DNA of 32,000 nt from Candidatus Lokiarchaeum ossiferum (GCA_025839675.1 CP104013.1:270001-302000), one strand, 5' to 3'. Numbered from the stretch's first letter, positions 8,563-29,971 are shown. A program made the numbers and translations. Notes: a model not told the origin generated them from the letters alone.

Positions 8563-9498
8563 ATGAATGATGATATCATTAAATATCAAGATACGGAACT
8601 ACATTACAAAGAAGTAAAATTTTTACAGGATTTGGAAGAGTTAACGCATAGAAAAATCCCTTGTCGTGAGAAATTTACCACAAAAAAATTTGGTTTCACT
8701 GCAGAGGGTTACCACATAATAGAATTACAATTAATTGATAGTGGGTTAACTCATCTTCCTTATTCGATTGGAAATTTAGAGAAACTTGAGACTATGTATC
8801 TCATTAAAAATAGATTAGAGGATTTACCTGACTCCTTTAGGCATCTGAAAAATCTGGAAGAATTACTCCTAAATTCAAATAAATTTACAGAAATCCCCAA
8901 ATATTTAGGAGAATTATCGAATCTTCGGATTTTAAATTTGGATGATAATTACATTACTCATATTCCAGAATCAATTTGTTCTTTACGAACGCTTAAAAGT
9001 CTGGACATCTTGAAAAATCAAGTCGAAACTCTCCCCGTTTGCATTGGAAATATGAAAAGTCTCAACCATCTGAATCTTCGTGATAACAGTCTTTCAGAAT
9101 TACCTGAATCCTTCGGCAATCTCTCTAATTTGTTCGAATTGAATCTAAGTTGTAATAAAATTACAAATTTACCAAATTCTATTGGTAGTTTACGTAATTT
9201 GAATTCGTTATTTTTAGGGGATAATTCTCTAAAAAAATTTCCCGATTCTTTTGCTAATTTAAAAAATCTGAAGGTTTTAAATGTTTCCGATAATCCACTC
9301 ACCGAAATCCCAAGTAAGTTTCATTCTCTTTCATCTCTTGAAGATTTGAATCTCAATAACACCAACGTGAAAAATTTACTTGAATATGTCAAAACTCTTC
9401 CCTCCTTGAAACGATTAGAAATAAAAAAAGTCAACCTTTCAGATGCCGATAAAAAACTAATTGTCACAACTTTAATGAATTGCAAAATCAGATATTAA
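8563..9498 (+). CDS. Leucine-rich repeat (LRR) protein, stand-alone
   Basis: 311 aa. About ten tandem 23-residue repeats of form LxxLxLxxNxLxxLPxSIGxLxN, for example LRNLNSLFLGDNSLKKFPDSFAN and LKNLKVLNVSDNPLTEIPSKFHS. Confidence 0.9.
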   Translation: MNDDIIKYQDTELHYKEVKFLQDLEELTHRKIPCREKFTTKKFGFTAEGYHIIELQLIDSGLTHLPYSIGNLEKLETMYLIKNRLEDLPDSFRHLKNLEELLLNSNKFTEIPKYLGELSNLRILNLDDNYITHIPESICSLRTLKSLDILKNQVETLPVCIGNMKSLNHLNLRDNSLSELPESFGNLSNLFELNLSCNKITNLPNSIGSLRNLNSLFLGDNSLKKFPDSFANLKNLKVLNVSDNPLTEIPSKFHSLSSLEDLNLNNTNVKNLLEYVKTLPSLKRLEIKKVNLSDADKKLIVTTLMNCKIRY

Positions 9499-10019: not shown

Positions 10020-10238
10020 TTACGAATTTTAAAGAAGCATCAAACAACCAATCGTGGGAGTTTGGCAATTTAATTTGTGAGTTGAATAAATATGGCACAA
10101 GAAAAATGGATTATAGAAGAAACTAAAAGATATGATCAAGAATTGCGTGATCAAAAAGAAGAAAATAGAACTATGCGAAAAATTGTTAATCGATCTTTAT
10201 TAAAATCAAAAAAAAACTCTAAAGCTTATAGAGGTTAA
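10020..10238 (+). repeat. Direct repeat unit A (~220 bp): small ORF plus ~70-nt conserved upstream region
   Basis: Aligns with 11711-11930. Shared blocks are TTAC(C)GAATTTTAA, CATCAAAC, TGGGAGTTTGGCA and GAGTTGAAT, followed by the ORF. Confidence 0.7.
10092..10238 (+). CDS. Small protein, 48 aa (paralog A), not in ORF track
   Basis: ATG 10092 to TAA 10236-10238: MAQEKWIIEETKRYDQELRDQKEENRTMRKIVNRSLLKSKKNSKAYRG. It has the same length as the ORF at 11784-11930 and is 24/48 identical to it, with many conservative changes. A conserved box TGGGAGTTTGGCA ends 25 nt upstream of the ATG in both copies. Confidence 0.55.
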   Translation: MAQEKWIIEETKRYDQELRDQKEENRTMRKIVNRSLLKSKKNSKAYRG

Positions 10239-10451: not shown

Positions 10452-11003
10452 TCAATCTTTGGTGATCCATTGTTCTCTGGTTAGTTCATAGAGATTATAC
10501 AAAAATTCTATCGGAAGACCATTAATATTTTCCCGAAAATGCGTCATTTTTTCCCCTATTTTTTTAAAGCCTAATTTTTTCAAGAGCTTTTGGGATGAAG
10601 CATTAACTGCGGCAGTACCTGCGGTGCATTTATCCACTTTTAACTCTCCTAATACATATTTGAGGATTTCTTTCCCTGCCTCAGTAGCATAGCCTTGTCC
10701 ATGATAGTTTGAATTAAAATTGTACCCAAACCCACGTACTACTTCTCCAACGAAATCTTTTTTCAATTGAATTTGCATAAGTCCAATTACTTTTCCTTGA
10801 GTTTTCAATTCAACCGCTGCAAATTCATCTCCCATGCTCAGATAATCTAAGAGTGGTTGGAGCTCTTTAGCAGTTTGGGGATAGGGTTGATCATATTTGC
10901 CCATCTCTGAAGCTTCATATTGTTGAGTTATCTCTAGAAGATCCTTTAAATCATTAGAAGTAAAATTTCTTAAGAGTAATCGTTCAGTCTGTAGACGGAT
11001 CAT
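10452..11003 (-). CDS. GNAT N-acetyltransferase (RimJ/RimL, Acetyltransf_3-like)
   Basis: 183 aa. N-terminal TERLLLRNFTSNDLKDL, motif-A region YHGQGYATEAGKEILKYV, and C-terminal NASSQKLLKKLGFKKIGE. Confidence 0.85.
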   Translation of the reverse strand: MIRLQTERLLLRNFTSNDLKDLLEITQQYEASEMGKYDQPYPQTAKELQPLLDYLSMGDEFAAVELKTQGKVIGLMQIQLKKDFVGEVVRGFGYNFNSNYHGQGYATEAGKEILKYVLGELKVDKCTAGTAAVNASSQKLLKKLGFKKIGEKMTHFRENINGLPIEFLYNLYELTREQWITKD

Positions 11004-11710: not shown

Positions 11711-11930
11711 TTACCGAATTTTAACTATTCATCAAACTACCCAAATTGGGAGTTTGGCATATTATACTATAGAGTTGAATTATATGACACAAGAAAACTG
11801 GATTTTAGAAGAATTAGAAAGATACGAACAACGTATCCATGACCAACAAACTGAAAATGCAATTAGACGAGAAGTACTTAAATTATCTTTATTAAAGTCA
11901 AAAATAAACGCTGGAGTGTATAATGGCTAA
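11711..11930 (+). repeat. Direct repeat unit B (~220 bp), paralogous to 10020-10238
   Basis: Same blocks and same spacing. The box ends 25 nt before the ATG in both copies. Confidence 0.7.
11784..11930 (+). CDS. Small protein, 48 aa (paralog B), not in ORF track
   Basis: ATG 11784 to TAA 11928-11930: MTQENWILEELERYEQRIHDQQTENAIRREVLKLSLLKSKINAGVYNG. Paralog of 10092-10238, with the same upstream box at 11747-11759. Confidence 0.55.
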   Translation: MTQENWILEELERYEQRIHDQQTENAIRREVLKLSLLKSKINAGVYNG

Positions 11931-12191: not shown

Positions 12192-13613
12192 GTGGTGAAA
12201 AGAATCAAATCTAAATTAACGGTATTTCTCTTTCACAGATCTTTGAGGATTATTGACAATATTGGATTATATCATGCATTAAATACTTCAAATTTAGTAA
12301 TTCCGATATTCATTTTTGATCCTAGACAAATAACGATGAATGAATATTTTAATTCAAATGCGTTTCAATTTTTACTCGATTCTTTAAATGATTTGCAGGA
12401 GCAATTTCAATTACTTCGTAAAAAAATCTATTTCTTCCATAATAATCCGATTTCAGTCCTGAATTCAATTTTTAAAGAATTAAAATATGATTCGATCGTT
12501 CTAAATAAAGATTACACTCCATTTTCCTTGGAAAGAGAGCAAAAAATAAGGGAATTCTGCAATAAACACAAAATTCACTTGACTGCAGTTCATGATTGTG
12601 TAATTAACAATCCTGACGTAATTAAATCTCAAAAACACACCCCCTATACGATCTTCACCCCGTATTTTAAATTTAGCAGAAAAATTCCTGTTATCGAACC
12701 ACAGGAATTTAATGAAGAAAAAAGCGATCAATTCGTTGAAATTGAATTGGGAAACGCGTTTCTCCTAAAGGAAGCAAGACAAAAATTTTTAAAATCCAAT
12801 AAGATTCCAACTCAAAAAGGAGGGAGAGAAGAAGGGATCAAGATCCTAAAATCCTTGCAAAAATATATTGATTATGACAAAAACCGCAATTTTCCAGGAT
12901 TAAATGGAACCACGGGATTATCACCTCATCTAAAATTCGGATCCATTTCTATACGGGAAGCCTATTCCCATATTAGCAAAATCCTTGGGAAAGAACATCC
13001 CTTACTCCGTCAACTTTATTGGCATGATTTTTTCACATATATTGGCTTTCATTTTCCCCATGTTTTTATCAAATCATTCAAGGAAAAATACAATCAAATT
13101 AAATGGAATAATGACGATTTGAAATTTGCTTTATGGAAACAAGGAATTACCGGATTTCCGATTGTTGATGCAGGTATGCGGGAATTAAATTCTACGGGTA
13201 TCATGCATAATAGAGTACGCATGATTGTTGCTTCATTTTTGACTAAAGACCTCCATATTAATTGGCAATGGGGAGAAAGATATTTTGCTCAAATGTTGAC
13301 AGATTATGATCCTGCATTAAATAATGGGAACTGGCAATGGGCTGCGAGCACCGGATGTGATTCTCAACCATATTTCCGGATTTTTAATCCTTGGAGCCAG
13401 CAGAAGACTTATGATCCAGATGCAATTTATATCAAGAAATGGATTCCCGAACTTGCTGACTATTCGGCAAAAATAATCCATAACCTTGAAAAAAAACGCC
13501 CAAAAGAATTACTTGAAGATGTATATCCTAAACCTATCGTTAATCATAAGAAAGAAAGAGAACTTACACTGTTCATGTTTAAAACGTTATCGGGCAAAGA
13601 AGTATCATTTTAG
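12192..13613 (+). CDS. phr: Deoxyribodipyrimidine (CPD) photolyase / cryptochrome-family flavoprotein
   Basis: 473 aa. FAD-binding-domain signatures TGFPIVDAGMRELNSTGIMHNRVRMIVASFLTKDL and DYDPALNNGNWQWAASTGCDSQPYFRIFNPWSQQKTYDPDAIYIKKWIPEL. GTG start. Confidence 0.92.
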   Translation: MVKRIKSKLTVFLFHRSLRIIDNIGLYHALNTSNLVIPIFIFDPRQITMNEYFNSNAFQFLLDSLNDLQEQFQLLRKKIYFFHNNPISVLNSIFKELKYDSIVLNKDYTPFSLEREQKIREFCNKHKIHLTAVHDCVINNPDVIKSQKHTPYTIFTPYFKFSRKIPVIEPQEFNEEKSDQFVEIELGNAFLLKEARQKFLKSNKIPTQKGGREEGIKILKSLQKYIDYDKNRNFPGLNGTTGLSPHLKFGSISIREAYSHISKILGKEHPLLRQLYWHDFFTYIGFHFPHVFIKSFKEKYNQIKWNNDDLKFALWKQGITGFPIVDAGMRELNSTGIMHNRVRMIVASFLTKDLHINWQWGERYFAQMLTDYDPALNNGNWQWAASTGCDSQPYFRIFNPWSQQKTYDPDAIYIKKWIPELADYSAKIIHNLEKKRPKELLEDVYPKPIVNHKKERELTLFMFKTLSGKEVSF

Positions 13614-18095: not shown

Positions 18096-18455
18096 TCAAA
18101 ACAACCTACAAATTCGTCGTAAGTCAAACGAATTGGCAATTATCTAATTTATCAAAGATCTATATAAAGTTTTTAGTGGTGTAAATTGCTAGGATGGCCT
18201 TGTTACAAAGATATGTGATCATAATGCTCCAAAACATTATTTCATTGATCATATTCAAAATAATGATTCAATATTTATTTTTACTTGGAATAAAATCTCA
18301 CTTCTATAACTATGAATATGATATTATATTCAGAATGCTATTAAATATGGTGAATTTAATCTTATTTTTATATCATAAGTAGATAAAAAATTCTAATTTA
18401 ACGACGATTAAAAAAGTACATTCTATTTTGATTTTCGTGAAAGTTTGACAAGTAT

Positions 18456-18932
18456 TTAAAAATTCGTTAAGAATTTCTGATCTTTTCGCTTTAATTCCGA
18501 TGTTTCTTCATAGATTTTTTGAATATAAGTTCTCTGAGTGAAGAAAGAATTCTTTATTTTAACTAATGAATTTTTAATGTCATTTCCATCACCAATATCA
18601 TCGGATATCGACCGACAATTTCTTACTTTATCTTTAATTTGTTTAAAACTTTGGATAAACAAGCGATCTAAATGTGCATCGATTCGATGCGTATTTTGGT
18701 CAAAATAGTAGTCAAATACTTTATGGATATTGAGGATGTTAATATTTAATATACGGCTTTGCAGTTGTCCAAGGTGTTTAATTAAAATCGAATTTACTCC
18801 TGTCATAATATTCCTTTCAGTTTGTATAAGTTGATCATAATCTTCCTTAGATTTATCATGTTCAACTTTCGGACCGCTTTTTTCTACTTTAACAAGCTGT
18901 CCTTGTTCATTTCTGATGTATTTGTTTCTCAT
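18456..18932 (-). CDS. Hypothetical protein, 158 aa (paralog 1 of 2)
   Basis: ATG start. Gapless alignment to 20815..21291 gives 95/158 identities by hand count, with a fully conserved LFIQSFKQIKD block. No known motif recognised. Confidence 0.7.
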   Translation of the reverse strand: MRNKYIRNEQGQLVKVEKSGPKVEHDKSKEDYDQLIQTERNIMTGVNSILIKHLGQLQSRILNINILNIHKVFDYYFDQNTHRIDAHLDRLFIQSFKQIKDKVRNCRSISDDIGDGNDIKNSLVKIKNSFFTQRTYIQKIYEETSELKRKDQKFLTNF

Positions 18933-19556
18933 ACTTAGATTTCACTTCATTATTTGGATTGAATTAAAAAAAGAGCGTGTTTTAGTCCCTTGAATTTTTC
19001 ATCATCATTTTTTTTTTTATTGCTTTGGCATTTCCAAGTTTGGATTCAGATTTTGGGTAAGTATATTTTTCCCCTTAAGTGCTCCATAAACAATTATATT
19101 GAATTTAGTAGGTGATTTTTCTGCACTTAACCTGGAAAGTCTAAAGAATGGCTGATTCAATAAAAAAATGGATCATTATTTTTGTTGTTGCGAGTGAGGG
19201 ATATTAAAATTGTTCAATGGGATTCAAAATAATTGCAACGTATACCTATATAATAGGTACACTTCTTTAAAAAATTTTCTATAAAAATAGAAACTCTCGC
19301 CAAACAATCTCTTGAATTTACTTGGTTATTTAGGACTGCGCTTGAGATTTTCAATATCCAGAATCATTCAGTAATCTTTCAAAAATTCAGCAAAAAAGAA
19401 ATTACTTTTAATAGTATTTTTTGGAGCTAACTCAATCTATTAATTCTTCTTTAGAAAAAAGGATTTTTTACTATAAATAAATCACAAAGATCCAAGGATT
19501 TGTCCCAACTTTTATTCTGAAATTAAAATTTTTAGAAAACTGGGAAATTCAGTTAG

Positions 19557-20536: not shown

Positions 20537-20770
20537 CTAATTTTTTAACAAATTTTTAGTTAATTCGATGTCACTTGCGTATGGACCTTTTCGATTCTTT
20601 AGTATTTCAAATTCAACTTTATCTCCCTTTCTGGGTGATATTACTCCAAAATTATATTGATTTATTTCTTCAAAATGAAAAAAAACATCCTTTTTATCTT
20701 GATTTACTGAAATAAAGCCATATCCTTTGATAGAATCATACCATTTTATTTTTCCTTTCTTTTTAATCAT
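20537..20770 (-). CDS. Cold-shock-domain protein (CspA-like)
   Basis: KGKIKWYDSIKGYGFIS (RNP1-like KGYGFI) and DVFFHF (RNP2-like). I place the start at ATG 20770, preceded by GGAGGTGAAA, rather than at the track's TTG at 20782. Confidence 0.8.
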   Translation of the reverse strand: MIKKKGKIKWYDSIKGYGFISVNQDKKDVFFHFEEINQYNFGVISPRKGDKVEFEILKNRKGPYASDIELTKNLLKN

Positions 20771-20814
20771 TTTCACCTCCAAAATTGCTTATATTGATAA
20801 TTAATTTGTTAATT

Positions 20815-21291
20815 TTAATAACCTGATAAAAAACTATGATTATTTTGTTTCAACTCAGCAGTTTGTTTATAAATCTTTTTGATATATTTTCTCTGGGTAA
20901 GAAACGATGTTTTTATTCTTGATAATTGACTTTTGATCTTTGTTTTTTTATTCATCTCATCGGATATCGACCGAGAATTTCTAATCATATCTTTAATTTG
21001 TTTAAAACTTTGAATAAACAAGGTATCAAGGTGTGCATTGATTCGATAGGTATCTTGATTGAAATAATATTCAAATACTTTCTGAATATTTAGAACATTG
21101 GTTTTTAATATTCGCCTTTGCAATTGGCCAAGATGGTTATGCAGCATTTTTTTAATTTCAACCATTATATTACTTTGTTCTTGCTTGAGTTGATGGTAAT
21201 CATCTTGGGATTTATCATGATCCACTTTAGGGCCATGATCTTCAACTTTAACAATTTTTCCATATTCATTCTTGATATATTTGTTTTTCAT
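20815..21291 (-). CDS. Hypothetical protein, 158 aa (paralog 2 of 2)
   Basis: About 60% identical to 18456..18932. Embedded in a co-directional five-gene cluster. Confidence 0.7.
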   Translation of the reverse strand: MKNKYIKNEYGKIVKVEDHGPKVDHDKSQDDYHQLKQEQSNIMVEIKKMLHNHLGQLQRRILKTNVLNIQKVFEYYFNQDTYRINAHLDTLFIQSFKQIKDMIRNSRSISDEMNKKTKIKSQLSRIKTSFLTQRKYIKKIYKQTAELKQNNHSFLSGY

Positions 21292-21341
21292 GTTTTATTT
21301 GCACTCTTTCTTTTAATTCATTTTAAAAAATAGAGGAAGGG

Positions 21342-21563: not shown

Positions 21564-22175
21564 TTATATTTTTTTTTTTAATAAAATGTAATTTGGAGAC
21601 TGAATTTCAGTCCCATTTATTTCTTCTTCCTCATAATCATAGCCCAAATCTATCCATTTTTGTATATAGGCTTTTCTATCTTTTTGAATTGCAATTTGTA
21701 TGAACTTACAATGAAGTTTTTTCAAATTATATTCGATATACATATGAAAATATTCATTCAATCTGAGATCTGCATAATAGGGATGAATTTTCATATACAA
21801 AATTTGATATACACGTGGTTTATAGGGTGATATAATTCCGATTACTCCCCCAATTAAGTTTTTATTCCCTATTTGAAATAGAGGGACAGATGTCTGTTGG
21901 AGTGCTTTATCTCGATTTAGTTGCAAGAAATCAAATTCCTTAAATGAATCTTGATTCCCATCTAACAGGAGAAAACACCCCTTTCCGTAGAATTGTTGAA
22001 TAATTTTGTAATGGATAGGTTTTAGATCAATATTATCAAATGATTCAAAAAATTGTTTAATTTTTTGAAAATCATGATAATCTGTTTTCTTAATTTGTAG
22101 ATTATTAAAAAAGATATTAATTTGGTTAACTATGGGGCATTTTTTTCGATTCTTTGATATCAATTTGTATTTCAC
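21564..22175 (-). CDS. Hypothetical protein with possible degenerate GNAT fold, 203 aa
   Basis: The C-terminal half, ILYMKIHPYYADLRLNEYFHMYIEYNLKKLHCKFIQIAIQKDRKAYIQKWIDLGYDY, has GNAT-like beta4-alpha3...beta-strand spacing but lacks the Q/RxxGxG/A acetyl-CoA loop. GTG start. Confidence 0.35.
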   Translation of the reverse strand: MKYKLISKNRKKCPIVNQINIFFNNLQIKKTDYHDFQKIKQFFESFDNIDLKPIHYKIIQQFYGKGCFLLLDGNQDSFKEFDFLQLNRDKALQQTSVPLFQIGNKNLIGGVIGIISPYKPRVYQILYMKIHPYYADLRLNEYFHMYIEYNLKKLHCKFIQIAIQKDRKAYIQKWIDLGYDYEEEEINGTEIQSPNYILLKKKI

Positions 22176-22189
22176 TTCATGTCTATTAA

Positions 22190-22375
22190 TTATTTCATAA
22201 TATTATATTCTAAATTCTCCCTCTTTTTTGAGAAGGGAGAGACTTTTGGCCGATTCGGTAAAATAAAATCCTTTTTCATTGAATAATCAAGAAAATCATC
22301 ACCTAATTCCTTATTAAAAATCCTTCTGCACGTATAATTCGTAGGACTTACCCATTTGACTTGAAAATCTTGCAT
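22190..22375 (-). CDS. Hypothetical small protein, 61 aa (first ORF of cluster; coding status uncertain)
   Basis: ATG start directly downstream of the conserved leader. Its first ~45 nt still align weakly with the 5' end of the ORF at 27635. Confidence 0.35.
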   Translation of the reverse strand: MQDFQVKWVSPTNYTCRRIFNKELGDDFLDYSMKKDFILPNRPKVSPFSKKRENLEYNIMK

Positions 22376-22448
22376 TTTAGTCCTTTGCAGATGAATTTAG
22401 ATGGAAATGTGGAAATTATTCTATAAAATCTGAACGATAGGTGTATCA

Positions 22449-22479
22449 ACAACAAATTCAAACCTTATCCTTTTGTTGT
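22449..22479 (-). promoter_or_regulatory. Stem-loop in leader copy 1: ACAACAAA / TTTGTTGT (8 bp) with a 15-nt loop
   Basis: Read directly. Stem arms are conserved in copy 2 while the loop sequence differs. Confidence 0.45.
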
Positions 22480-22551
22480 GAATAATTGGAACGTAATTGT
22501 TTCAATTCGATTATGAATAACTGCCAAGTACTATATTAATTAAGAATTTCT

Positions 22552-22559
22552 CATATAAA
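22552..22559 (-). promoter_or_regulatory. TATA-like box TTTATATG (minus strand) within repeat copy 1; predicts a ~150-nt 5' leader
   Basis: Minus strand reads AAAAATTTTTATATGAG. The homologous TTTATATA occurs at 27804-27811 in copy 2. Confidence 0.4.
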
Positions 22560-23116
22560 AATTTTTCTATCGATTTTGAAGATATTTAATTAATATCTTT
22601 CTAATACAATGGGACATTTAGAAATCTGCTGAAGATCCAGATTATTAACAGTTATTCCGATCTCTTTTAATAGTTAGGATGAAAATAGGCGAAACTTTGG
22701 TGTTTACTTTTATGCGTTATTTTAATGAATTTGGTCTCCTAGATTGCAATTTTGATCCCAGAATGTTTTTTGTATATTTTTACTCATTTATGCTGAAATT
22801 AAGGATTTATTCGTTGTTTAAAATATGGAAAAAATTCAAGTTTAATGAGTTGCAAAACGACATTTGTTACAATTAGATGAGAAAAAACATTTGGTCGATT
22901 AAATTGGAAAAAATTTTAGTATTTTTGGGTAGGAAACGGAAGCGATTTAATTCCATTACAATACAATCAATTTTCAATTTTAACCACAATTTACAATAAT
23001 TTCTTTAGATTATGATCTAAAACATAATATATGGCTAATTTTAGAGCTAAGATTTGTTGTAGTAAACTTTGGGATTTATAGATTATCTAACCTATAATAA
23101 AAAATATTCAATGGCG

Positions 23117-23133
23117 AAAAATAGAGTAAAAAA
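23117..23133 (-). terminator. Two oligo-T tracts (T6 and T5 on minus strand) 7-20 nt after the AsnB-like stop
   Basis: Plus strand cgAAAAAtagagtAAAAAAg, immediately downstream of TAA (23140-23142). Confidence 0.35.
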
Positions 23134-23139
23134 GAAGAG

Positions 23140-24645
23140 TTACACAATAAATACAGAGGTTCGAGGCATATTTTGGATGAATTCTTCGGTAAAACCAAAT
23201 TTCTGATTAAATACTTGCCAATAATGTAATTCTTCCTTATTTTTCAGGATAACTCCTGGAAAAATCTCTTTTTGGTTATTAAAAGCATCATCGGTAAATT
23301 TTTTGTCAAAGTAATCGCGTAAAATAAATTGAGAACCAACACCTTTTGAAAATTTGGCTTTATGACGCTTATATACACTCAATGGGATTATTTTCTTAAA
23401 GCTTTCTCGAATAATCCATTTTTCTAATAGTTCCCCTTCTGCTGTTTTGTAAAGTTTTACTTCTGAAGGAAAAGTAAAGGACAAATCAACAATTTCCTTA
23501 TTGAACCAAGGTGCTCGTGCTTCTATTCCAAATGCATAAGGTATTCTGTCAACCCTTTGTAAACCTGTAGAATGTTCTATTTTTAACATTTCTTCAATTT
23601 CTTTGTCAAATTGTTCAGAAGTAAGTTCTTTCAAATAATCATAACCTCCAAATAATTCATCTCCACCCTCTCCTGTCAACAATACATCCGCTTTTTTACC
23701 GATCTTTGAGCAAATATAGTACATCGGGATAGCGCTCCTTATTAGTGCAGCATCAAAAGTTTCTAGATGGTAAATTACATCATCGATAATTGGAAGCATT
23801 TCTTCTATCGTGATTTTGAAAATATGATGATTTACTTCTGGATACATCTTAGTAAAATTCTTTGCATGTTCAAGATCTGGAGAATTTTCGGCTACTACAG
23901 TATAAACATCGAGATTGGGTATATATTTCTGTGCTAATGCACATATAACGACGGAATCAATACCTCCACTTAATAGTGCAGCAACTTTACCATTCGTCCC
24001 AATTGAATTTTGAACTGCTCTATCTAAGGTTGTGGACAGTTTCTGTTTCATAATATCTAAATCATTGATAGAAGTGGTATTTTCATTAAAATTATAATAT
24101 TTTTTTAATTCAAGTCCTGTTTCCGAAAAAATCATTGCTTGTCCCGGTTCAATGGTGCGTGGTATGCCTGAAAAATGGCTGAAAATTTTCAATTCGGAAG
24201 AAATCAAAAGAAATTCTGGTTGATTCATATAATAAAGAGGATTAAAACCCATCTGATCTCTAACCGCTACAATTTCTTTAGAATTTTTTATTAAAATCGA
24301 GAATTCTCCTATCAATTGTTTAAAAAATGCAATCCCATGTTTTTTATAACCACTTTCAAGATATTTCAAATCAATATTAGTAATAGATGAATTTAATTCC
24401 TTGATTCGTTCATTTGATAAGTAACCATCTATAATTGAAAATCCTTTATTATTTATACTTACTTCCGTATTCATTTGACCTTTGTTTAAGAAAAAAATCC
24501 CCACAGAATTTGGATCGTGGTACGATAGTTTTTTGAAATTGCCACGATGGGCAATTTTTTCAGCGATTTCATGAATATGTTCTATATTGATCGGCTTTTT
24601 TTTATTCTTTTTATGGTAATACACAATTCCTGTCATTTTTTGCAC
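23140..24645 (-). CDS. Asparagine synthetase B-like ATP-dependent amide synthetase with degenerate glutaminase domain (no Cys1)
   Basis: PP-loop ALLSGGIDSVVICALA, LLTGEGGDELFGGYDY, and LQRVDRIPYAFGIEARAPWFNKEIVD. The N-terminus reads M-T-G-I (ATG 24636) where AsnB has M-C-G-I. The track start is GTG 24645. Confidence 0.85.
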   Translation of the reverse strand: MQKMTGIVYYHKKNKKKPINIEHIHEIAEKIAHRGNFKKLSYHDPNSVGIFFLNKGQMNTEVSINNKGFSIIDGYLSNERIKELNSSITNIDLKYLESGYKKHGIAFFKQLIGEFSILIKNSKEIVAVRDQMGFNPLYYMNQPEFLLISSELKIFSHFSGIPRTIEPGQAMIFSETGLELKKYYNFNENTTSINDLDIMKQKLSTTLDRAVQNSIGTNGKVAALLSGGIDSVVICALAQKYIPNLDVYTVVAENSPDLEHAKNFTKMYPEVNHHIFKITIEEMLPIIDDVIYHLETFDAALIRSAIPMYYICSKIGKKADVLLTGEGGDELFGGYDYLKELTSEQFDKEIEEMLKIEHSTGLQRVDRIPYAFGIEARAPWFNKEIVDLSFTFPSEVKLYKTAEGELLEKWIIRESFKKIIPLSVYKRHKAKFSKGVGSQFILRDYFDKKFTDDAFNNQKEIFPGVILKNKEELHYWQVFNQKFGFTEEFIQNMPRTSVFIV

Positions 24646-24649
24646 TTTT

Positions 24650-25834
24650 TTACTTATTAATTGTTAGATATTCACCCTTCAATTTTGAAGGGAGCGATTT
24701 TTGATGGATTCTACTTGCTGAAATTTTATTTCTAGTTAATAATCTCGAAAAACCTCCTTTAACCTTCTTTTGAGGAAAAGTTTGCAAATAGTTATTTATC
24801 GGAAAGCGGATTCGAGATAGAGTTCTTCCATTTTTATAAAAATTAACTCCAAGTAAACTTCCTGCGAGAGTTATGAAAGAATCAATTATTGGGGTTGGAA
24901 TGTTCAGGTATTTACCAAGAGAAGAAAGAGGTATAAGACCTGTTGGTACTTCTTCCATCAAGTATCTGTTATTTAGATCCTTTGGGGCTTTAATCTTTTT
25001 ATAGGGTTCAATAATTCTGAAAGCTTCAAAATAATTAGAGGCATTCACATTATATGAATCTCTTACCCATTGTAAAAATGTTTTTGGGCGAATTCCTAAT
25101 TTGTTTAAAATTAGACATCTTTCCTTATCCATCTCTTTAATAACATTAGCAATTTGCAAAGAAACATCTCTATAGAAAAAAAAATCATTTTTCCTGAGAA
25201 TTGCCCCTGCATTCAAAATTGAAATAGTTGGATGCAAAAGTGCCCCAATATTATTCAAACTTGTTTCTAGAATGTTTGATACAAAATTTAGTTGTGGAAA
25301 AATAGTTTTTAATTCTTTTTGAATTTTAATGTCCTCTCTTTCTGGGTAAAAACAGATGTCCAGAGAATTTTTAATTTTGATAATATCTACTCCCGAATCT
25401 GAGATTTTACGGCATGTAAATAAAAGAGATTGGGTTTCTGCAACCTTAATTCGTAAATTCGGTCGTTTCCGTTTAATAAAATTATAAACTTCAACCGCTC
25501 CAAATGTCCGTCCTGGATTTAAAATAAGAATTTGTCCATCTGATAAAGAAGGTAATATTCTTTCTATAATTTCAATATGAACATGAGCTGGGACCACTAT
25601 GAAAATGTACTTGGAATTGTGGATTAAATTAACATAATTAGGCGATATTCGCCCAATAGGGTAAATTCCCTTCATCAACCCTTTAGATACGATTTTTCCT
25701 GTTCTTAAAATAGTGCTGATGTTTTCATAAGTGCGAAACCCAAGTTTTACTTTAAATCCTAAATCCGATAAATATACAGCAAAAGCACGACCTCCATTAC
25801 CGGCCCCAATAATCGTAATTTCATTTGATTTCAT
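24650..25834 (-). CDS. Opine (octopine/nopaline) dehydrogenase-family NAD(P)-dependent oxidoreductase
   Basis: N-terminal Rossmann motif ITIIGAGNGGRAFAVYL. Central LLHPTISILNAGAI is typical of the Octopine_DH helical domain. GGGAGA RBS upstream. Unusual basic C-terminal tail. Confidence 0.6.
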   Translation of the reverse strand: MKSNEITIIGAGNGGRAFAVYLSDLGFKVKLGFRTYENISTILRTGKIVSKGLMKGIYPIGRISPNYVNLIHNSKYIFIVVPAHVHIEIIERILPSLSDGQILILNPGRTFGAVEVYNFIKRKRPNLRIKVAETQSLLFTCRKISDSGVDIIKIKNSLDICFYPEREDIKIQKELKTIFPQLNFVSNILETSLNNIGALLHPTISILNAGAILRKNDFFFYRDVSLQIANVIKEMDKERCLILNKLGIRPKTFLQWVRDSYNVNASNYFEAFRIIEPYKKIKAPKDLNNRYLMEEVPTGLIPLSSLGKYLNIPTPIIDSFITLAGSLLGVNFYKNGRTLSRIRFPINNYLQTFPQKKVKGGFSRLLTRNKISASRIHQKSLPSKLKGEYLTINK

Positions 25835-25874
25835 TCTTCTCCCTTTTTTTAATTTTTATAAGTATCACTTATTT

Positions 25875-27635
25875 CTAACAAGTTGGTGAATTTGATAAAA
25901 AAGATTTTACATCTAATTGTTCAAATTTAGAAAATAATCTTCTTATTCGATCCTTTTCAAGCAAACGATGGCCATCTTCAGTTACACAAATACATTTACC
26001 GTCTATAATTTTAGAATTAATATTTCCAAAGTTTGATGAATCATTTTTTAGATGTGGTGCATCAAAAAATCCATTTTCGACAATTGAAGTTAAAAATTCT
26101 GGAGTCAACAAATAATTCTCACCATAATGAGATTCTCCAAAGTCTTCAATCGCGGATAAAGTTATCCGAGCTTCCTTTATCAATTCATTTTTATATCTTT
26201 GAATCTCGGGATCATTAGTTAAGTTAATTGGATCATAACTTACTTCCTCAACTACTTTCTTCGCAATTTGTGCGCTAACAATTATATCTTGAGCTTTGGC
26301 TGCATGATTCGCTTCACAATAATTTACAATATGTATGATTGAGGGTTTTACTGCCATTTGGAATAACGTTGATAAAGCTAATTGGGCTTTTGCTTCATCT
26401 GGATTGTTTGAAAAATATGATAATCCTGCTCGAGTTTCTTTTAATATATCGAATGAAGGAGATTTCAAGGGTTCTACAACCTCAATCATCGCCAATACTC
26501 GACCTAAATCCATATTGAGACTGTTACCTACAGGAGTATTAAACATCAATTGTTGAATATACGTTTTGACTCCCAGTTCTTTGGCAATTTTTGCACATAG
26601 AAAGGCATCGGCAACAACTATATGGTCTGGAGCTGCTCGAAGTCCCCATTGATGAGGATCATTAATTTCAACGGGTAAATTTCGATGAGCGTGCCACATT
26701 ATATTTTCTAAGTTTTCTTGAATCGCTAATTTTAACGGACGCTTGGATCTACCATCTAGATCAGAATACCAAAATATCGGTGTTGCAGTCCATGCATTTT
26801 TTAAATATTTTAATTGAACTTTACTATTTAATATTAAATCTTGGGTTCCAGCATATATTCTAAGTAATGGGTAATTCCCAACTTGAGCGGAAGCGTAAAT
26901 TCTTTGCAAATCTTCTGTAGTTCTAATGGGAATACCTCCAGCACCTTTATCACATTTTTCAAGTACATCTTTTCGATGAAAATATTCTTGAGCAGGTTGA
27001 TCTGGAGCTATTGATATTACATCTACTAATTTTGATTTAGCAATTTTTTTAATTTCTTCTAAAGATTGTTCTAATGAATTCAATCCAAAATGAGTTCGAT
27101 ATATCGGATTTGGGGATTTCAATTTCAGTCGTGAAAGTAAATTAGATGCTTCAATATTTTTTTTTTGAGCTGCTGGATCTTTATCTTCCAATATTGCAAC
27201 ACAATATGAAGGTGATTCTCCCCCGATGAAAATATGTTTAAAGAAATTTAATGGAATGATTTTTTCTTTCAATGCTGGTAAACATCCTAGTAAAAAAATA
27301 CGCTTTGAAAGGTTTTTTTCATGAATCTCAGAAATAAAGTTTTTAATGATTTCAAATCCAACATCCGGAGTCAATCTAAAAGATAAAGCAACAACATATG
27401 GGTTTAAATGTTGGATTTCATAAATTATTTTATCAATTGAACATGCAGGCCCCAAAAATGATGTTTGATAACCATTTTCTTGTGCAATCTTAAAAAAATT
27501 GGTTATTCCTGCAACATGAACACAACTGTCAAGACATGCTCCCAAAATGTGTTTATTTTTTGTACTCTGCATCATTTTTTTCACTTTATAACGGTGTAAT
27601 CTAATAAATTTATCTGGTAAAATCTTTTCAAACAA
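25875..27635 (-). CDS. Fusion protein: N-terminal cobalamin (B12)-binding Rossmann-like domain plus a ~430-aa C-terminal domain resembling glutamate mutase E (methylaspartate mutase) by eye
   Basis: Residues ~25-150, HILGACLDSCVHVAGITNFFKIAQENGYQTSFLG...VVALSFRL...IFIGGESP, align by eye to MutS/GlmS ([31 protein letters not shown]...CVSS...VGG). There is no CxxxCxxC, so it is not a radical SAM enzyme. Start is ambiguous: TTG 27635 or ATG 27575. Confidence 0.55.
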   Translation of the reverse strand: MFEKILPDKFIRLHRYKVKKMMQSTKNKHILGACLDSCVHVAGITNFFKIAQENGYQTSFLGPACSIDKIIYEIQHLNPYVVALSFRLTPDVGFEIIKNFISEIHEKNLSKRIFLLGCLPALKEKIIPLNFFKHIFIGGESPSYCVAILEDKDPAAQKKNIEASNLLSRLKLKSPNPIYRTHFGLNSLEQSLEEIKKIAKSKLVDVISIAPDQPAQEYFHRKDVLEKCDKGAGGIPIRTTEDLQRIYASAQVGNYPLLRIYAGTQDLILNSKVQLKYLKNAWTATPIFWYSDLDGRSKRPLKLAIQENLENIMWHAHRNLPVEINDPHQWGLRAAPDHIVVADAFLCAKIAKELGVKTYIQQLMFNTPVGNSLNMDLGRVLAMIEVVEPLKSPSFDILKETRAGLSYFSNNPDEAKAQLALSTLFQMAVKPSIIHIVNYCEANHAAKAQDIIVSAQIAKKVVEEVSYDPINLTNDPEIQRYKNELIKEARITLSAIEDFGESHYGENYLLTPEFLTSIVENGFFDAPHLKNDSSNFGNINSKIIDGKCICVTEDGHRLLEKDRIRRLFSKFEQLDVKSFLSNSPTC

Positions 27636-27698
27636 ATGTATTAAATTTAGTATGAGATATGGGAATTATTCTACAAAATCTGAATGATGAATAAATCA

Positions 27699-27730
27699 AC
27701 AACAAAATCCTTAGATTTTTTCTATGTTGT
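27699..27730 (-). promoter_or_regulatory. Stem-loop in leader copy 2: ACAACA / TGTTGT (6 bp, extendable with a bulge) with a 20-nt loop
   Basis: Homologous position to 22449-22479. Confidence 0.4.
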
Positions 27731-27803
27731 GAATAATCGGAATCTACTCGATTCAATAAGACTTTGAATAATTGCCTAGTACCATATTACTTTTAGATCT
27801 TCA

Positions 27804-27811
27804 TATATAAA
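27804..27811 (-). promoter_or_regulatory. TATA box TTTATATA (minus strand) within repeat copy 2
   Basis: Minus strand reads TTAAATTTTTATATATGAAG. Matches the archaeal TTTAWATA consensus and is conserved with copy 1. Confidence 0.45.
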
Positions 27812-28273
27812 AATTTAACTGTTGAATTTGAGACTATTAAACCAATAACTCTTCATTTATTTAAGATATTGTTAACTCAGATTAAAATACATATTCTCGA
27901 CTGTTTTATTGATCTATCTTAATCTTTAGGATGAAAAGAGATTTTTTTCTACTTTATTTAATTTTAGGTTATTTTGGCTAACTAGAGCGCCAAGCAGAAA
28001 AAAATTTTCCATTAGAGATTTTTCTAAAAATTTAATCATTCATGCGTTTATACTTATTCTATACTTGTTTATACCTAAGAAAAAAAAGACATTATCAAAA
28101 TTCAAAATATCTTAGATGATGATGGAACTGGCAGAATGGATGATAACATAATCACAAAAAAATCTGTCATGGAATTCGTTTTACATCATAATCATTATAC
28201 ATGACTGACAAATTGAAGTAATTGTAAAGTTCCTATCATTCGAATTGTGATAATTAGGTAAATATGCTGTGTT

Positions 28274-28285: not shown

Positions 28286-28870
28286 TTATTTATTTACCTT
28301 TAAAGTAATCAGTCCATTGTCAGCATCAATGGTCGGTTTGTTTTTGGGTTTAAACGGAAGTCGAATTTGTTTTTTATATTCTACCTTGTCATTTTTCCCA
28401 ATGATTTTCAATAAATCTCCTTCGATTTTTGTCTCAATATCCTTCAAACCGATTCCAGGCATTTCGAACCGATAAATGTGCGTATCATCTTTTGGTTCTC
28501 CTTTTTTTTCGTTCTTTTTTTTCTTCTTTGACAACAATAATTTTGGATTTTTTATAGATGAACCTTCCAATTCTACTCCATATTTAGAGTTTATACCTGA
28601 TACAAATCTGTTGATAGTATCCTTGTCTACATCACCTTCTATCATTATTTCTGGTTCATCCATCCCAGTTTCATATTTGTAAGATAAAGAATAACTTTTA
28701 TCTTTTTGATTTGAATCATAAAAATTTTCATAATGGGAAGAAAAATGGTAGTTATCTTTCAAAGAAGAATCTTGCTTCATTTTTTGAAATTTTTTTTCTA
28801 TATCGTTCCATTCATCATGGATTCTCTCAAATTCTTTATCAATATCGTCAAATATGCGAAATACTTTCAT
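28286..28870 (-). CDS. Hsp20/alpha-crystallin-domain protein with long acidic and poly-Lys N-terminal extension (194 aa)
   Basis: C-terminal ACD: HIYRFEMPGIGLKDIETKIEGDLLKIIGK...IDADNGLITLKVNK. GGAGGT RBS. T12 directly after the stop. Confidence 0.7.
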   Translation of the reverse strand: MKVFRIFDDIDKEFERIHDEWNDIEKKFQKMKQDSSLKDNYHFSSHYENFYDSNQKDKSYSLSYKYETGMDEPEIMIEGDVDKDTINRFVSGINSKYGVELEGSSIKNPKLLLSKKKKKNEKKGEPKDDTHIYRFEMPGIGLKDIETKIEGDLLKIIGKNDKVEYKKQIRLPFKPKNKPTIDADNGLITLKVNK

Positions 28871-28912
28871 TATTTTACCTCCTCTTTATTTGATTTAAAA
28901 AAAAACAACGAC

Positions 28913-29236
28913 TTACTCTAACTTAATTCTATAAGCATCATCCATGGGATTCTTAATTTTACCTGTGATATATAGTAAGCCTTCTTCATAATCTCCTTTT
29001 ACTGTATCTATATCAACCTCCCAAGGAAAATGTCCTGACAACGAATAATGGGCATTATCTCTTGTTGCCGATAGATCAAAATATTTTGGTAAAACTCGAA
29101 ATTTGATCTTGGATTTATCAACACCAGGTAAATGAATCTCCAAATTCCATTCTTTTTTGGTAGATTCTACATTGAAATGACTGGTGGGCGTTATTTTATA
29201 TTTTATTTCTGTTTCTTGTGCTTCTTCTTGAGTCAT
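28913..29236 (-). CDS. Minimal Hsp20/alpha-crystallin-domain protein (107 aa)
   Basis: WNLEIHLPGVDKSKIKFRVL...GDYEEGLLYITGKI, with a C-terminal I-x-L (RIKLE). AGGAGG RBS. Confidence 0.7.
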   Translation of the reverse strand: MTQEEAQETEIKYKITPTSHFNVESTKKEWNLEIHLPGVDKSKIKFRVLPKYFDLSATRDNAHYSLSGHFPWEVDIDTVKGDYEEGLLYITGKIKNPMDDAYRIKLE

Positions 29237-29248
29237 TCTTTATTCCTC

Positions 29249-29629
29249 CTAAAATTTTATTTCTTTCGCTCCATCGAAGGGATCCGGAATATGGGCTGTT
29301 ATGGTTAATAAACCACAATCATATTTGGCAGTCGTTCTCTCAGGAATGATGGTTTTTCCAAAGTTTTGATTTGCATTATACATTAATTGACCACGTTTTG
29401 CTTCCAAGTAGAACCATTTGGGAAGCGCTTTCAGTTTAATATTTTCCTTTTTTACTCCTGGTAAAGCGATTTCAAAGGTAATTATTCTTTTATCATAGTC
29501 TATGTTTCGAGTCATATCAGGAAAAACATTATATATAGATTCTTTTTTTTCTTCTTCTTGTTTTTGAGCTTCTGTCATTTCTTCTTTTTCTCTTTCTATC
29601 ATTGCCATGTTCATCATCTCCATTTGCAA
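29249..29629 (-). CDS. Minimal Hsp20/alpha-crystallin-domain protein (about 124-126 aa)
   Basis: ITFEIALPGVKKENIKLKAL...AKYDCGLLTITAHI, with a C-terminal I-K-F. Start is uncertain: TTG 29629 or ATG 29623. Confidence 0.65.
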   Translation of the reverse strand: MQMEMMNMAMIEREKEEMTEAQKQEEEKKESIYNVFPDMTRNIDYDKRIITFEIALPGVKKENIKLKALPKWFYLEAKRGQLMYNANQNFGKTIIPERTTAKYDCGLLTITAHIPDPFDGAKEIKF

Positions 29630-29635
29630 AAAAGA

Positions 29636-29971
29636 TTATTCAATTTTAACATCAAAAGCATGTTCGAGAGGATTATAACGTTTTAATTCCACCTTCAATA
29701 AGCCTTCCTCATATTTTGCTTTGCTTACATCGGGTTCAACTTTAGTAAGTTCGAGATCCAGTGCATACATTACCTCACCACGGGGAGCTCGTAATGTGAA
29801 ATAATTGGGGAGAACTCGCATATCAATGTCCTCCTTTTTTACTCCCGGAATTGCGATTTGAATGGTGACAATTTCATCTTTACTCCATACACCATAGCGA
29901 GGAGTCACTTTGTAGCGTGGATCATCACTACTTTTTTCCGTCTGGTTTTTTTCAGATTTTATAATTGACAT
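29636..29971 (-). CDS. Minimal Hsp20/alpha-crystallin-domain protein (111 aa)
   Basis: VTIQIAIPGVKKEDIDMRVL...AKYEEGLLKVELKR, with a C-terminal V-K-I. AGGAGA RBS. Confidence 0.7.
   Translation of the reverse strand: MSIIKSEKNQTEKSSDDPRYKVTPRYGVWSKDEIVTIQIAIPGVKKEDIDMRVLPNYFTLRAPRGEVMYALDLELTKVEPDVSKAKYEEGLLKVELKRYNPLEHAFDVKIE

Follow-up and report, generated by a model that had tools for sequence, protein, structure and literature searches.

A putative B12-dependent mutase and an opine dehydrogenase form a conserved gene pair, accompanied in Candidatus Lokiarchaeum ossiferum by an AsnB-type amide synthetase

Glutamate mutase (GlmS/GlmE; 1cb7, 1i9c and 6h9e) combines a Rossmann B12 module, which holds a His ligand in a DxHxxG motif, with a TIM-barrel catalytic module, and has methylaspartase as its partner. 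CENDH (N-(1-D-carboxyethyl)-L-norvaline dehydrogenase of Arthrobacter sp. 1C, 1bg6) is an opine dehydrogenase with a two-domain layout and a set of His, Arg and acidic residues. AsnB of E. coli (1ct9) carries a PP-loop synthetase domain, and in β-lactam synthetase and CarA a Cys-less N-terminal domain accompanies ATP-dependent carboxylate adenylation. Multi-step pathways of comparable logic are also known. The NAGGN osmolyte pathway, with the ATP-grasp enzyme Ngg and AsnO, couples an amide former to a building-block enzyme, and pyrrolysine synthesis proceeds through a mutase (PylB), a Ddl-like ligase (PylC) and a dehydrogenase (PylD). Here we describe a locus of Candidatus Lokiarchaeum ossiferum that encodes relatives of a B12 mutase (g1), an opine dehydrogenase (g2) and AsnB (g3) side by side; the families of g1 and g2 are unrelated to PylB (radical SAM) and PylD. 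An earlier note on this DNA knew of no characterised pathway that unites the three chemistries, and our literature search likewise found no published description of one.

The window, that is, the whole stretch of 32,000 nt analysed (GCA_025839675.1 CP104013.1:270001-302000), contains the three ORFs on the minus strand: g1 at 25875-27635, g2 at 24650-25834 and g3 at 23140-24645. Between g1 and g2 lie 40 nt; between g2 and g3 the distance depends on the start of g3, being 4 nt for GTG 24645 (501 aa) and 13 nt for ATG 24636 (498 aa). The gene calls of two Lokiarchaeum genomes concur, with 566 or 586 aa for g1, 394 aa for g2 and 498 aa for g3. For g1, which is 100% identical to NEF87_000260, the start is most likely ATG 27575 (566 aa; 25875..27575) rather than TTG 27635 (586 aa), because the NCBI call and the homologues begin there. 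The compact, co-directional arrangement described in the earlier note is thus confirmed in coordinates and gaps, as is its statement that the unit holds no transporter or regulator. Upstream of g1 lies a putative promoter and leader of ~210 nt (27644..27850, minus strand) that starts with the TATA-like AAATTTTTATATAT. An Rfam search found no match to it, and its predicted fold is not significant (z-score -1.5). The "conserved promoter/leader" of the earlier note does exist, with the correction that it is a putative element duplicated within the window: another minus-strand unit is preceded by a second copy, 80% identical, at 22394-22600. The oligo-T tracts reported past the last stop are also present; TTCTTTTTT, TATTTTT and ATTTTTT, read directly from the sequence 3' of g3 (23085..23139, minus strand), form a putative archaeal terminator-like region. 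The operon adjoins tandem Hsp20-like genes.

g1 is predicted to contain an N-terminal B12-binding Rossmann domain (~aa 8-125) followed by a GlmE-like TIM barrel (~aa 146-550). Unlike GlmS/GlmE, it unites both modules in one chain, with the B12 domain coming first, and its predicted cobalt-ligand motif, CVHVAG (27507..27524, minus strand), follows the pattern CxHxxG where DxHxxG is canonical. Every column of the motif can be aligned with DlHdiG and DiHsiG, its counterparts in corrinoid proteins of solved structure, and its Cys18, His20 and Gly23 are invariant in 35/35 homologues. We know of no precedent for the Asp to Cys swap. Within the wider fingerprint DxHxxG...SxL...GG, g1 has SxRL, the invariant Cys in place of Asp and, in Lokiarchaeum, G-C in place of GG. 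The g1 family profile aligns to the B12 domains of 4jgi, 7xcn and MetH. In Pfam searches, B12-binding matches all 35 of 35 family members, with Lokiarchaeum g1 at 23.8 bits, below the cut-off of 32.1, and Met_asp_mut_E matches 17/35, several above the cut-off, and gives no match to Lokiarchaeum g1 alone. No NCBIfam family matches g1. Since g1 by itself is sub-threshold in Pfam, it is the family profile and the predicted structure that support its assignment as a mutase. In Foldseek, an AF2 model (pLDDT 88.9) best matches two chains of glutamate mutase E (6h9e_B and 1cb7_B; E = 8e-15, TM 0.63); lysine and ornithine aminomutases (KamD, OraE) come next, together with acyl-CoA mutases (MCM, HCM, IcmF), so that the top matches of the large domain are all AdoCbl isomerases. 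Profile and model together place g1 in the class of AdoCbl-type, GlmE-like mutases, from which radical chemistry would follow.

The context of g1 relatives bears on this assignment. Genes for the GlmL reactivase lie immediately upstream of the g1-g2 pair in three loci (L055, L049 and L020), two of them scoring above the equivalog threshold of NCBIfam GlmL, and fusions of g1 to GlmL make up three protein clusters (P0380, P0384 and P0389), which argues for adenosylcobalamin radical chemistry. The Lokiarchaeum window contains no GlmL gene, and none of the fetched loci described below contains canonical GlmS or GlmE. The likeness to GlmE extends to the motifs around its Arg66 (QPRAG versus xRAHFG) and to a further motif (RHGTPD versus IYAGTxD), at an overall identity of ~13%; canonical GlmE escapes the g1 profile with both HMMER and hhalign. 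By an approximate mapping, Arg66 corresponds to g1 Arg160, the sole clear equivalent among the five substrate-binding residues compared (Arg66, Arg100, Arg149, Glu171 and Tyr181), Arg149 falls on the invariant Tyr241, two residues after an invariant Arg239, and Arg100 and Glu171 find no evident equivalents. Given this weak match to the GlmE substrate residues and profiles, a glutamate-type substrate for g1 is a guess.

g2 (394 aa; 24650..25834, minus strand) matches Pfam Octopine_DH with E = 2e-39 (135 bits, cut-off 30) and aligns with CENDH over its full length (residues 3-342, E = 2e-57, 38% identity), sharing the two-domain layout. Its NAD(P) domain carries a GxGxxG motif, GAGNGG (aa 10-15; 25790-25807, minus strand). 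The predicted catalytic His201 (25232-25234, minus strand) is the equivalent of CENDH His202, and the segment from Arg290 to Glu295 (24950-24967, minus strand) holds the equivalents of Arg292 and Asp297. His201, Arg290 and Glu294 are invariant in 65/65 orthologues. At the position of Asp297, 63 of 65 orthologues have Asp and two have Glu, among them Lokiarchaeum g2. g2 also differs from CENDH in being genetically locked to a B12 mutase. Its class and its catalytic residues, as read from these alignments, identify it as a true opine dehydrogenase of the CENDH type, predicted to depend on NAD(P)H.

g3 (498 aa; 23140..24636, minus strand) is predicted to be an adenylating amide synthetase of the AsnB type whose glutaminase domain has degenerated. 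It matches Pfam Asn_synthase (E = 3e-48), GATase_7 (E = 4e-11) and E. coli AsnB (E = 4e-43), and scores below the NCBIfam equivalog cut-offs, with 301 bits against 499 for AsnB PRK09431, 193 against 267 for TIGR01536 and only 112 against 570 for the NAGGN amidotransferase model. All synthetase-domain invariants are retained, namely the PP-loop SGGxDS (SGGIDS; 23953-23970, minus strand), Glu348, Arg325 and Lys449 in AsnB numbering. Alignment with AsnB reveals, in contrast, a lost glutaminase site: the N-terminus reads MTGI in place of MCGI (Cys1 to Thr), Arg49 is absent, and N74-G-E76 has become D-G-Y. The C-terminal tail of AsnB is missing as well. Loss of the glutaminase residues together with retention of the synthetase site points to an amidating enzyme unable to use glutamine. 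About 100 g3 homologues start with MTGI, MAGI or MSGI, and four of the five relatives checked in their own contexts do not stand beside g1-g2. Similarity to β-lactam synthetase and CarA is weak (E = 1e-7 to 1e-10), and the Glu of g3 TGEGGDE, an AsnB-type motif (GEGGDE; 23656-23673, minus strand), stands where CarA TGYGSD has its catalytic Tyr. β-lactam synthetase likewise has a Tyr-Glu dyad with its Tyr in an (S/T)G(Y)G motif; for this residue, the alignment with g3 covered CarA. The families proposed in the earlier note, a cobalamin-binding domain fused to a glutamate mutase E-like domain for g1, the opine dehydrogenase family for g2 and an AsnB-like enzyme without a glutaminase nucleophile for g3, all agree with these results.

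The g1 family is large, with at least 593 genome loci, 80 of which were fetched, and it forms 572 clusters at 50% identity. g1 and g2 are adjacent and on the same strand in 73/80, and no more than 200 nt apart in 72; of the seven exceptions, four lie at contig ends. Either gene may come first, and in some loci start and stop codons overlap. The hosts are anaerobes from Asgard archaea, Chloroflexota, Bacillota and other groups. The distance matrices of g1 and g2 correlate with r = 0.92, a value reached by 0/999 Mantel permutations. Thus, g1-g2 is the conserved unit, and the two proteins co-evolve. Synteny, one of the tests that the earlier note set for its trio, holds strongly for this pair, and only in a minority of loci (12/80) for the AsnB-like member. 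The g1 family would represent an uncharacterised B12 radical mutase whose gene nearly always has an opine dehydrogenase gene as its partner, across ~600 anaerobe genomes. A staphylopine-type metallophore cluster (CntM) was considered and rejected, because the neighbouring genes include no CntL/nicotianamine-synthase-like partner.

An AsnB-like gene is found within 6 kb of the pair, in several arrangements, in those 12 loci, which belong to Asgard archaea, Chloroflexota and relatives of Thermoanaerobacter; by our own rough estimate, chance would place one in ~1/80. Counting ATP-dependent amide-forming enzymes of any kind, the number rises to 17/80 fetched loci, about one in five, plus four further loci of g1 relatives or divergent paralogues and one gene fusion. 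Divergent Ddl-like ATP-grasp genes are operonic with the pair in two loci (L066 and L023), and an ATP-grasp gene lies directly upstream of it, within glycan clusters, in two others (L065 and L076). In L088, an opine dehydrogenase gene is followed by a fusion of g1 to a RimK-like ATP-grasp domain and then by a class-I GATase. Two g1 paralogues of 29% identity stand in the orders opine dehydrogenase-mutase-Ddl-like and mutase-Asn_synthase-opine dehydrogenase, and three bacterial loci (L032, L042 and L051) carry Cys1-bearing, glutamine-competent amidotransferases in the equivalent position. The recurring third element is a function, ATP-dependent amide formation, and not one particular gene. Overall, the interpretation given in the earlier note is partly supported.

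The explanation that we favour is that g1, g2 and g3 constitute a single operon and encode a short small-molecule pathway whose fixed core is the two-enzyme g1-g2 cassette, with skeleton rearrangement, reductive N-carboxyalkylation and carboxylate amidation as its steps. Taken as a whole, we give this explanation an even chance of being correct; the sequence does not fix the order of the steps. g1 would bind AdoCbl base-off/His-on through His20 of CxHxxG, and a 5'-deoxyadenosyl radical would drive the 1,2-rearrangement of a carboxylate-bearing substrate inside the GlmE-like barrel. Our best guess for this reaction is that a C5 skeleton of the glutamate type, with or without prior N-carboxyalkylation, becomes one of the 3-methylaspartate type. 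With NAD(P)H and its His-Asp/Glu-Arg site, g2 would join the amino group of one substrate to a 2-oxo acid by reductive condensation, the product being an N-(1-carboxyalkyl) amino acid. g3 would adenylate a carboxylate, possibly the aspartate-like β-carboxylate of the rearranged skeleton, and use free ammonia to amidate it, as expected from the dead glutaminase site. The end product would be an opine that is amidated and close to neutral in charge, in keeping with the amidated opine-type compound hypothesised in the earlier note, and in other lineages a different ligase would act on the product of the g1-g2 cassette.

Other readings share parts of this evidence. One is that only g1 and g2 are linked, g3 being an ordinary ammonia-dependent asparagine synthetase that is co-transcribed by positional accident. 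The intact AsnB synthetase invariants, the abundance of Cys-less and mostly solitary g3 relatives, and the rarity of AsnB-like genes near the pair would all suit this reading. We consider it possible but doubtful, since that rarity still amounts to about ten times our rough chance estimate, the association recurs in three phyla with differing gene orders, and non-homologous amide ligases, one of them fused to g1, fill the same place elsewhere. The paralogue with Asn_synthase between mutase and opine dehydrogenase and the short g2-g3 gap weigh in the same direction. A dehydrogenase-linked methylaspartate route appears unlikely. In this scheme, g1 would act as a divergent mutase of glutamate (or of 2-oxo-/2-hydroxyglutarate), g2 would interconvert 3-methylaspartate or 3-methylmalate and 3-methyloxaloacetate at C2, yielding 2-oxobutyrate for isoleucine synthesis or propionate fermentation, and g3 would be an unrelated asparagine synthetase. 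GlmE is indeed the best structural match of g1, GlmL beside g1 passes the NCBIfam cut-off for methylaspartate mutase accessory protein, the hosts are fermentative anaerobes, and an unstable β-keto acid intermediate would account for the tight coupling of the pair. Conversion of β-methylaspartate to 2-oxobutyrate is established. In six Tissierellia/Clostridia loci, moreover, genes for butyrate kinase and 2-oxoacid:ferredoxin oxidoreductase precede the pair, although the Tissierellia oxidoreductase genes stand 350-780 nt from g2. Recurrent ATP-dependent ligases, the ATP-grasp fusion and glycan-cluster contexts are ill-suited to catabolism, and the GlmE Arg100 and Glu171 equivalents are not evident in g1. 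Opine dehydrogenases are known to make or oxidise a D-configured centre, whereas glutamate mutase gives L-threo-3-methylaspartate, and we know of no primary amino acid or hydroxy acid dehydrogenase in the opine dehydrogenase family.

The earlier note had also allowed for a cyclised product. In a monocyclic β-lactam pathway, g2 would make an N-(1-carboxyethyl) amino acid, g1 would turn it into the N-(2-carboxyethyl) isomer, which is the type of substrate used by β-lactam synthetase, and g3 would close the ring, so that every product would feed the next enzyme; the Cys-less β-lactam synthetase and CarA do match g3 (E = 2e-8 and 2e-10). This option is disfavoured and, in our judgement, very improbable: g3 is far nearer to AsnB and has the AsnB-type Glu at the CarA Tyr position, the three bacterial loci hold amidotransferases with competent Cys1 and Gln sites in the equivalent position, and ATP-grasp ligases substitute at other loci. 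Nor do we know of a precedent for a 1,2-amino shift that acts on a secondary amine without PLP. Least probable of all is that g1 is a methylcobalamin methyltransferase. NCBI names many of its homologues "methionine synthase", and its B12 domain aligns with the corrinoid domains of MetH and MttC. This reading is at odds with the isomerase matches of the large domain, with GlmL adjacent or fused to g1 relatives, with the lack of an NCBIfam match to g1 and with the 278 neighbouring genes, among which there is no methyltransferase partner.

The amidated opine of the three-step pathway could plausibly serve as a stress or compatible solute or, amide-linked to surface glycans, as a building block; the neighbourhood hints, among them the Hsp20-like genes beside the Lokiarchaeum operon, are weak and come from different lineages. 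Amide bonds between opine-type amino acids and sugars have been described (PMC10609480). Beside the glycan clusters mentioned above, the neighbours of the pair in Chloroflexi include c-di-AMP receptors, Na+/H+ antiporters and a CLC channel.

The three minus-strand ORFs described in the earlier note are real and are separated by gaps of only 40 nt and 4-13 nt. The first, g1, a putative AdoCbl-dependent mutase gene, spans 25875-27635 from a TTG codon or 25875-27575 from an ATG codon (566 aa); the ATG at 27575 is the likelier start because NCBI calls and homologue starts coincide there. It is followed by g2 (24650-25834, 394 aa), an opine dehydrogenase gene of the N-(1-D-carboxyethyl)-L-norvaline dehydrogenase (CENDH) type, and by g3 (23140-24645, or to 24636 from an ATG, giving 498 aa with the N-terminus MTGIV), an AsnB-type amide synthetase gene. 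g1 is 100% identical to NEF87_000260 of Candidatus Lokiarchaeum ossiferum, and the same three genes are present in a second Lokiarchaeum genome. Oligo-T tracts do follow the last stop codon, in a window whose G+C content is ~30%. The conserved promoter/leader corresponds to a ~210-nt intergenic element with a TATA-like start, directly upstream of g1 (27644-27850, minus strand); a second copy (22394-22600, minus strand) lies directly upstream of another unit, consisting of a 61-aa ORF (22190-22375) and a 203-aa ORF (21564-22175), both on the minus strand. The two copies are 80% identical, with the TATA-like box AAATTTTTATATAT at the start and GATTATTCACAACA...TTTGTTGTTGAT inside; an Rfam search with the element gave no match, and no significant fold was found. 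This duplicated element may be a shared promoter/operator, in which case both downstream units would be co-regulated. The 203-aa ORF has no Pfam match, and its single-sequence AF2 model (pLDDT 36.7) is unusable.

We interrogated the g1 protein by profile and structure comparisons. Searched on its own, the Lokiarchaeum protein has a B12-binding match below threshold and none in NCBIfam or the PDB, and the records of its more than 300 close homologues label them as B12-binding-domain proteins or "methionine synthase". An alignment of 35 homologues contains an invariant Cys18-x-His20-x-x-Gly23, and the family profile built from it matches solved corrinoid domains, with CxHxxG falling exactly on their DxHxxG. 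The motif is encoded at 27507-27524 (minus strand), with Cys in place of the Asp, and this replacement is family-wide, including 29%-identical paralogues and fusion proteins; such a motif is not known to us from any other family of B12 enzymes. PDB sequence searches with the family profile and with P0067, a g1-related protein, gave matches confined to the B12 domain. From the alignment, AlphaFold2 produced a confident model (pLDDT 88.9), whose best PDB Foldseek matches are glutamate mutase E (GlmE; 6h9e_B and 1cb7_B, E = 8e-15, TM 0.63), with acyl-CoA mutases ranking lower and all best matches being adenosylcobalamin isomerases. The structure prediction and Foldseek search that the earlier note had suggested for this protein, there counted as 586 aa, thus return an AdoCbl isomerase fold with glutamate mutase E in first place. 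Given this fold, and with no NCBIfam model matching g1, the name "methionine synthase" is not supported; its use for many g1 homologues in NCBI records is probably a propagated misannotation.

The Pfam family Met_asp_mut_E is matched by 17 of the 35 family members, some above the gathering score, and neither hhalign nor hmmsearch (--max) gave a significant alignment between the g1 family and canonical GlmE. By these comparisons g1 is not a GlmE orthologue. Because the profile alignment failed, active-site residues were mapped only roughly, via Pfam profile coordinates; in this rough mapping GlmE Arg66 corresponds to Arg160 of g1, the sole clearly kept residue, and the counterpart of Arg149 is an invariant Tyr that follows an invariant Arg by two residues. 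Invariant positions of g1 include Arg160, Arg239, Tyr241, Asp274, Arg276, Glu303, Asn305, His308, Arg313, Lys332, Arg382 and His415. Genes for GlmL, the reactivase of glutamate mutase GlmS/GlmE, lie directly upstream of the g1-g2 pair in three loci, and two of these genes exceed the NCBIfam GlmL equivalog cut-off; g1-GlmL fusions make up three protein clusters; canonical glmS and glmE were found in none of the loci. This adjacency and fusion of GlmL to g1 relatives independently supports radical AdoCbl chemistry for g1. On an ENA contig (ERZ27248885, locus L089), g1 is fused to GlmL in a 1266-aa protein and the opine dehydrogenase gene precedes it.

The predicted g2 protein is 38% identical to CENDH (PDB 1bg6) over its full length (E = 2e-57). 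CENDH His202 and Arg292 are conserved, and the position of Asp297 holds Asp in 63 of 65 orthologues and Glu in Lokiarchaeum g2. A scan with one genome per species revealed g1 relatives at no fewer than 593 loci, and the g1 family comprises 572 representatives at 50% clustering. Neighbourhoods were counted in 80 fetched loci, which by our own tally of the record titles belong to Asgard or other archaea (25), Chloroflexota (27), Bacillota (21) and other groups (7). A g2 homologue lies beside g1 on the same strand in 73 of these 80 loci (44 downstream of g1, 29 upstream), and in 72 the two are within 200 nt of each other; of the seven remaining loci, four are at contig ends. No other broadly conserved neighbour of g1 was found in the fetched loci. 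The distance matrices of g1 and g2 are correlated (r = 0.92), with none of 999 Mantel permutations reaching as high a value. Gene order and sequence distances together show an obligate, co-inherited cassette of the B12 mutase-like protein with a genuine opine dehydrogenase. A weak Rfam match to sn2429 (C/D-box snoRNA-like; 25393-25462, minus strand) inside g2 is most likely due to chance (22.9 bits vs a gathering score of 50, E = 0.42).

Synteny of the whole trio, in contrast to that of the strictly paired g1 and g2, is limited: g3-like genes occur within 6 kb of the pair in 12 of 80 loci, in three phyla and several arrangements, where we estimate a chance expectation of ~1 of 80, and of five g3 relatives whose own contexts were examined, four stand alone. 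g3 may thus be a bystander asparagine synthetase. It is nearest to AsnB (1ct9, E = 4e-43) and scores under the NCBIfam AsnB cut-offs. Aligned with E. coli AsnB (Sakai genome), its glutaminase site lacks Cys1, Arg49, Asn74 and Glu76, and all invariant residues of the synthetase domain are retained; the enzyme accordingly cannot use glutamine. About 100 Asgard and bacterial relatives likewise begin with MTGI, MAGI or MSGI, and a metagenome scan with g3 gave one weak match only, which provided no context. Near the pair, g3-like genes are Cys-less in all Asgard copies and in loci L015, L038 and L041; in L032, L042 and L051 they are canonical (MCG present, glutamine site intact). Since both kinds share the same position, amide (NH2) transfer is indicated rather than cyclisation.

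In other loci, further ATP-dependent enzymes that form amides take this position beside the cassette. Two loci (L066 and L023) carry operonic, divergent Ddl-like ATP-grasp genes (84 and 142 bits vs a Ddl cut-off of ~245). The Lachnospiraceae loci L065 and L076 each have an ATP-grasp gene as the immediate upstream neighbour of the pair, amid glycosyltransferase genes; L065 further contains genes for a DegT aminotransferase, LytR_cpsA_psr and an acyltransferase. In locus L088, stop and start codons overlap across an opine dehydrogenase gene, a fusion of g1 with a RimK/GshB-like ATP-grasp domain and a class-I glutamine amidotransferase gene. Paralogues with only 29% identity to g1 show the same arrangement: at one locus, in an archaeal context, the order is Octopine_DH, mutase, Ddl-like ligase, and at another it is mutase, Asn_synthase, Octopine_DH. 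The third member, an ATP-dependent carboxylate-amine or amide-forming enzyme, recurs but is interchangeable. The fusion protein of L088 (Logan contig SRR21412986) is 863 aa long and is flanked by Peptidase_C26/GATase and opine dehydrogenase.

We weighed several other readings of these genes. A dehydrogenase-linked variant of the methylaspartate route, ending in 2-oxobutyrate, is plausible, as it accords with the GlmL association, with GlmE being the best fold match, and with a Tissierellia context containing butyrate kinase and 2-oxoacid:ferredoxin oxidoreductase. However, it leaves the ligases, the ATP-grasp fusion and the glycan clusters unexplained, and it clashes with the stereochemistry of the opine dehydrogenase family, which is D-specific. 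A PLP-dependent aminomutase was also considered for g1 and is less likely, the Rossmann domain of the family having no invariant Lys and GlmE being a better fold match than KamD or OraE.

For the product, a beta-lactam pathway would be chemically neat; the (S/T)G-x-G motif, however, carries Glu in g3, as in AsnB, in the place of the Tyr of lactam-forming CarA, and canonical amidotransferases occupy the g3 position in other loci, so the cyclisation considered in the earlier note is disfavoured. The staphylopine-type metallophore raised there was rejected, as neither a nicotianamine-synthase-like gene nor a metallophore exporter occurs among 278 neighbouring genes. A link of Ddl neighbours to D-alanine or peptidoglycan was likewise rejected: those within operons are divergent ATP-grasp ligases that score far under Ddl cut-offs, true Ddl genes near the cassette are divergently oriented and probably coincidental, and the cassette is abundant in archaea, which lack peptidoglycan.

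We favour a pathway to rearranged, amidated opines. In this scheme, g1 would catalyze a 1,2-shift on a carboxylate-bearing skeleton, most simply from a glutamate type to a 3-methylaspartate type, g2 would add an N-(1-carboxyalkyl) group by reductive condensation, and g3 would perform ammonia-dependent amidation of a carboxylate, possibly the aspartate-like one created by the mutase. Hints to the role are weak and vary by lineage. Chloroflexi cassette loci carry genes for a c-di-AMP receptor, a Na+/H+ antiporter and a CLC channel, and an amidated opine, which would be roughly charge-neutral, would suit a compatible solute. In Lokiarchaeum the hint is that the operon adjoins tandem Hsp20-like genes. 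A glycan role fits the Lachnospiraceae loci, because O-antigens contain opine-type amino acids amide-linked to sugars (PMC10609480). We suggest, tentatively and with some doubt, that g1 represents a new AdoCbl isomerase class with a Cys-His lower-ligand motif, that its natural substrate is an opine (a secondary-amine dicarboxylate) or its precursor, and that the cassette yields a new family of rearranged N-carboxyalkyl amino acids which, after amidation or ligation, serve as solutes or envelope building blocks in Asgard archaea and many anaerobic bacteria.

All three enzymes are within known superfamilies. Apparently new are the g1 family itself (fused architecture, CxHxxG motif, no sequence similarity to GlmE that could be detected), the strictness with which it is paired to an opine dehydrogenase, and the three-step logic of the pathway. 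Our literature search found no description of these genes in combination, whether in Asgard archaea or elsewhere, in agreement with the earlier note, which knew of no characterised pathway combining the three. The g1 family is a large, conserved, uncharacterised branch of the AdoCbl isomerase superfamily, of which, to our knowledge, only about a dozen enzymes are known and new ones are rare. With an opine dehydrogenase as its obligate partner, far fewer substrates come into question, and because the cultured thermophiles Caldanaerobacter (C. subterraneus) and Thermoanaerobacter carry the same cassette (loci L015, L032 and L067), the biochemistry is directly testable. Such work, bearing on B12 enzymology and Asgard metabolism, could yield a new radical rearrangement, a new metabolite class common to Asgard archaea and anaerobic bacteria, a further reason for the B12 dependence of these organisms, and the correction of a widespread "methionine synthase" misannotation.

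Just upstream of the operon are four tandem small ORFs (194, 107, 126 and 111 aa; 28286-29971, minus strand) that are Hsp20/alpha-crystallin-like, a block kept in both Lokiarchaeum genomes; the 107-aa ORF has a weak Pfam match (E = 9e-5), the sole match of two tandem ORFs scanned. In another Lokiarchaeota genome (L082), a g3 homologue also adjoins Usp and HSP20 genes. Elsewhere in the window, two paralogous 158-aa ORFs (18455-18946 and 20814-21305; 72% DNA identity, spacing 2359 nt) enclose a 254-aa ORF and a cold-shock-domain gene (20537-20782). Direct repeats at 10023-10238 and 11715-11930 (72-78% identical, spacing 1692 nt) lie on either side of a GNAT acetyltransferase gene (10452-11003), and both are upstream of a photolyase gene (12192-13613). 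A 311-aa leucine-rich-repeat protein encoded at 8563-9498 on the plus strand matches several LRR Pfam families, plant-type LRR models included.
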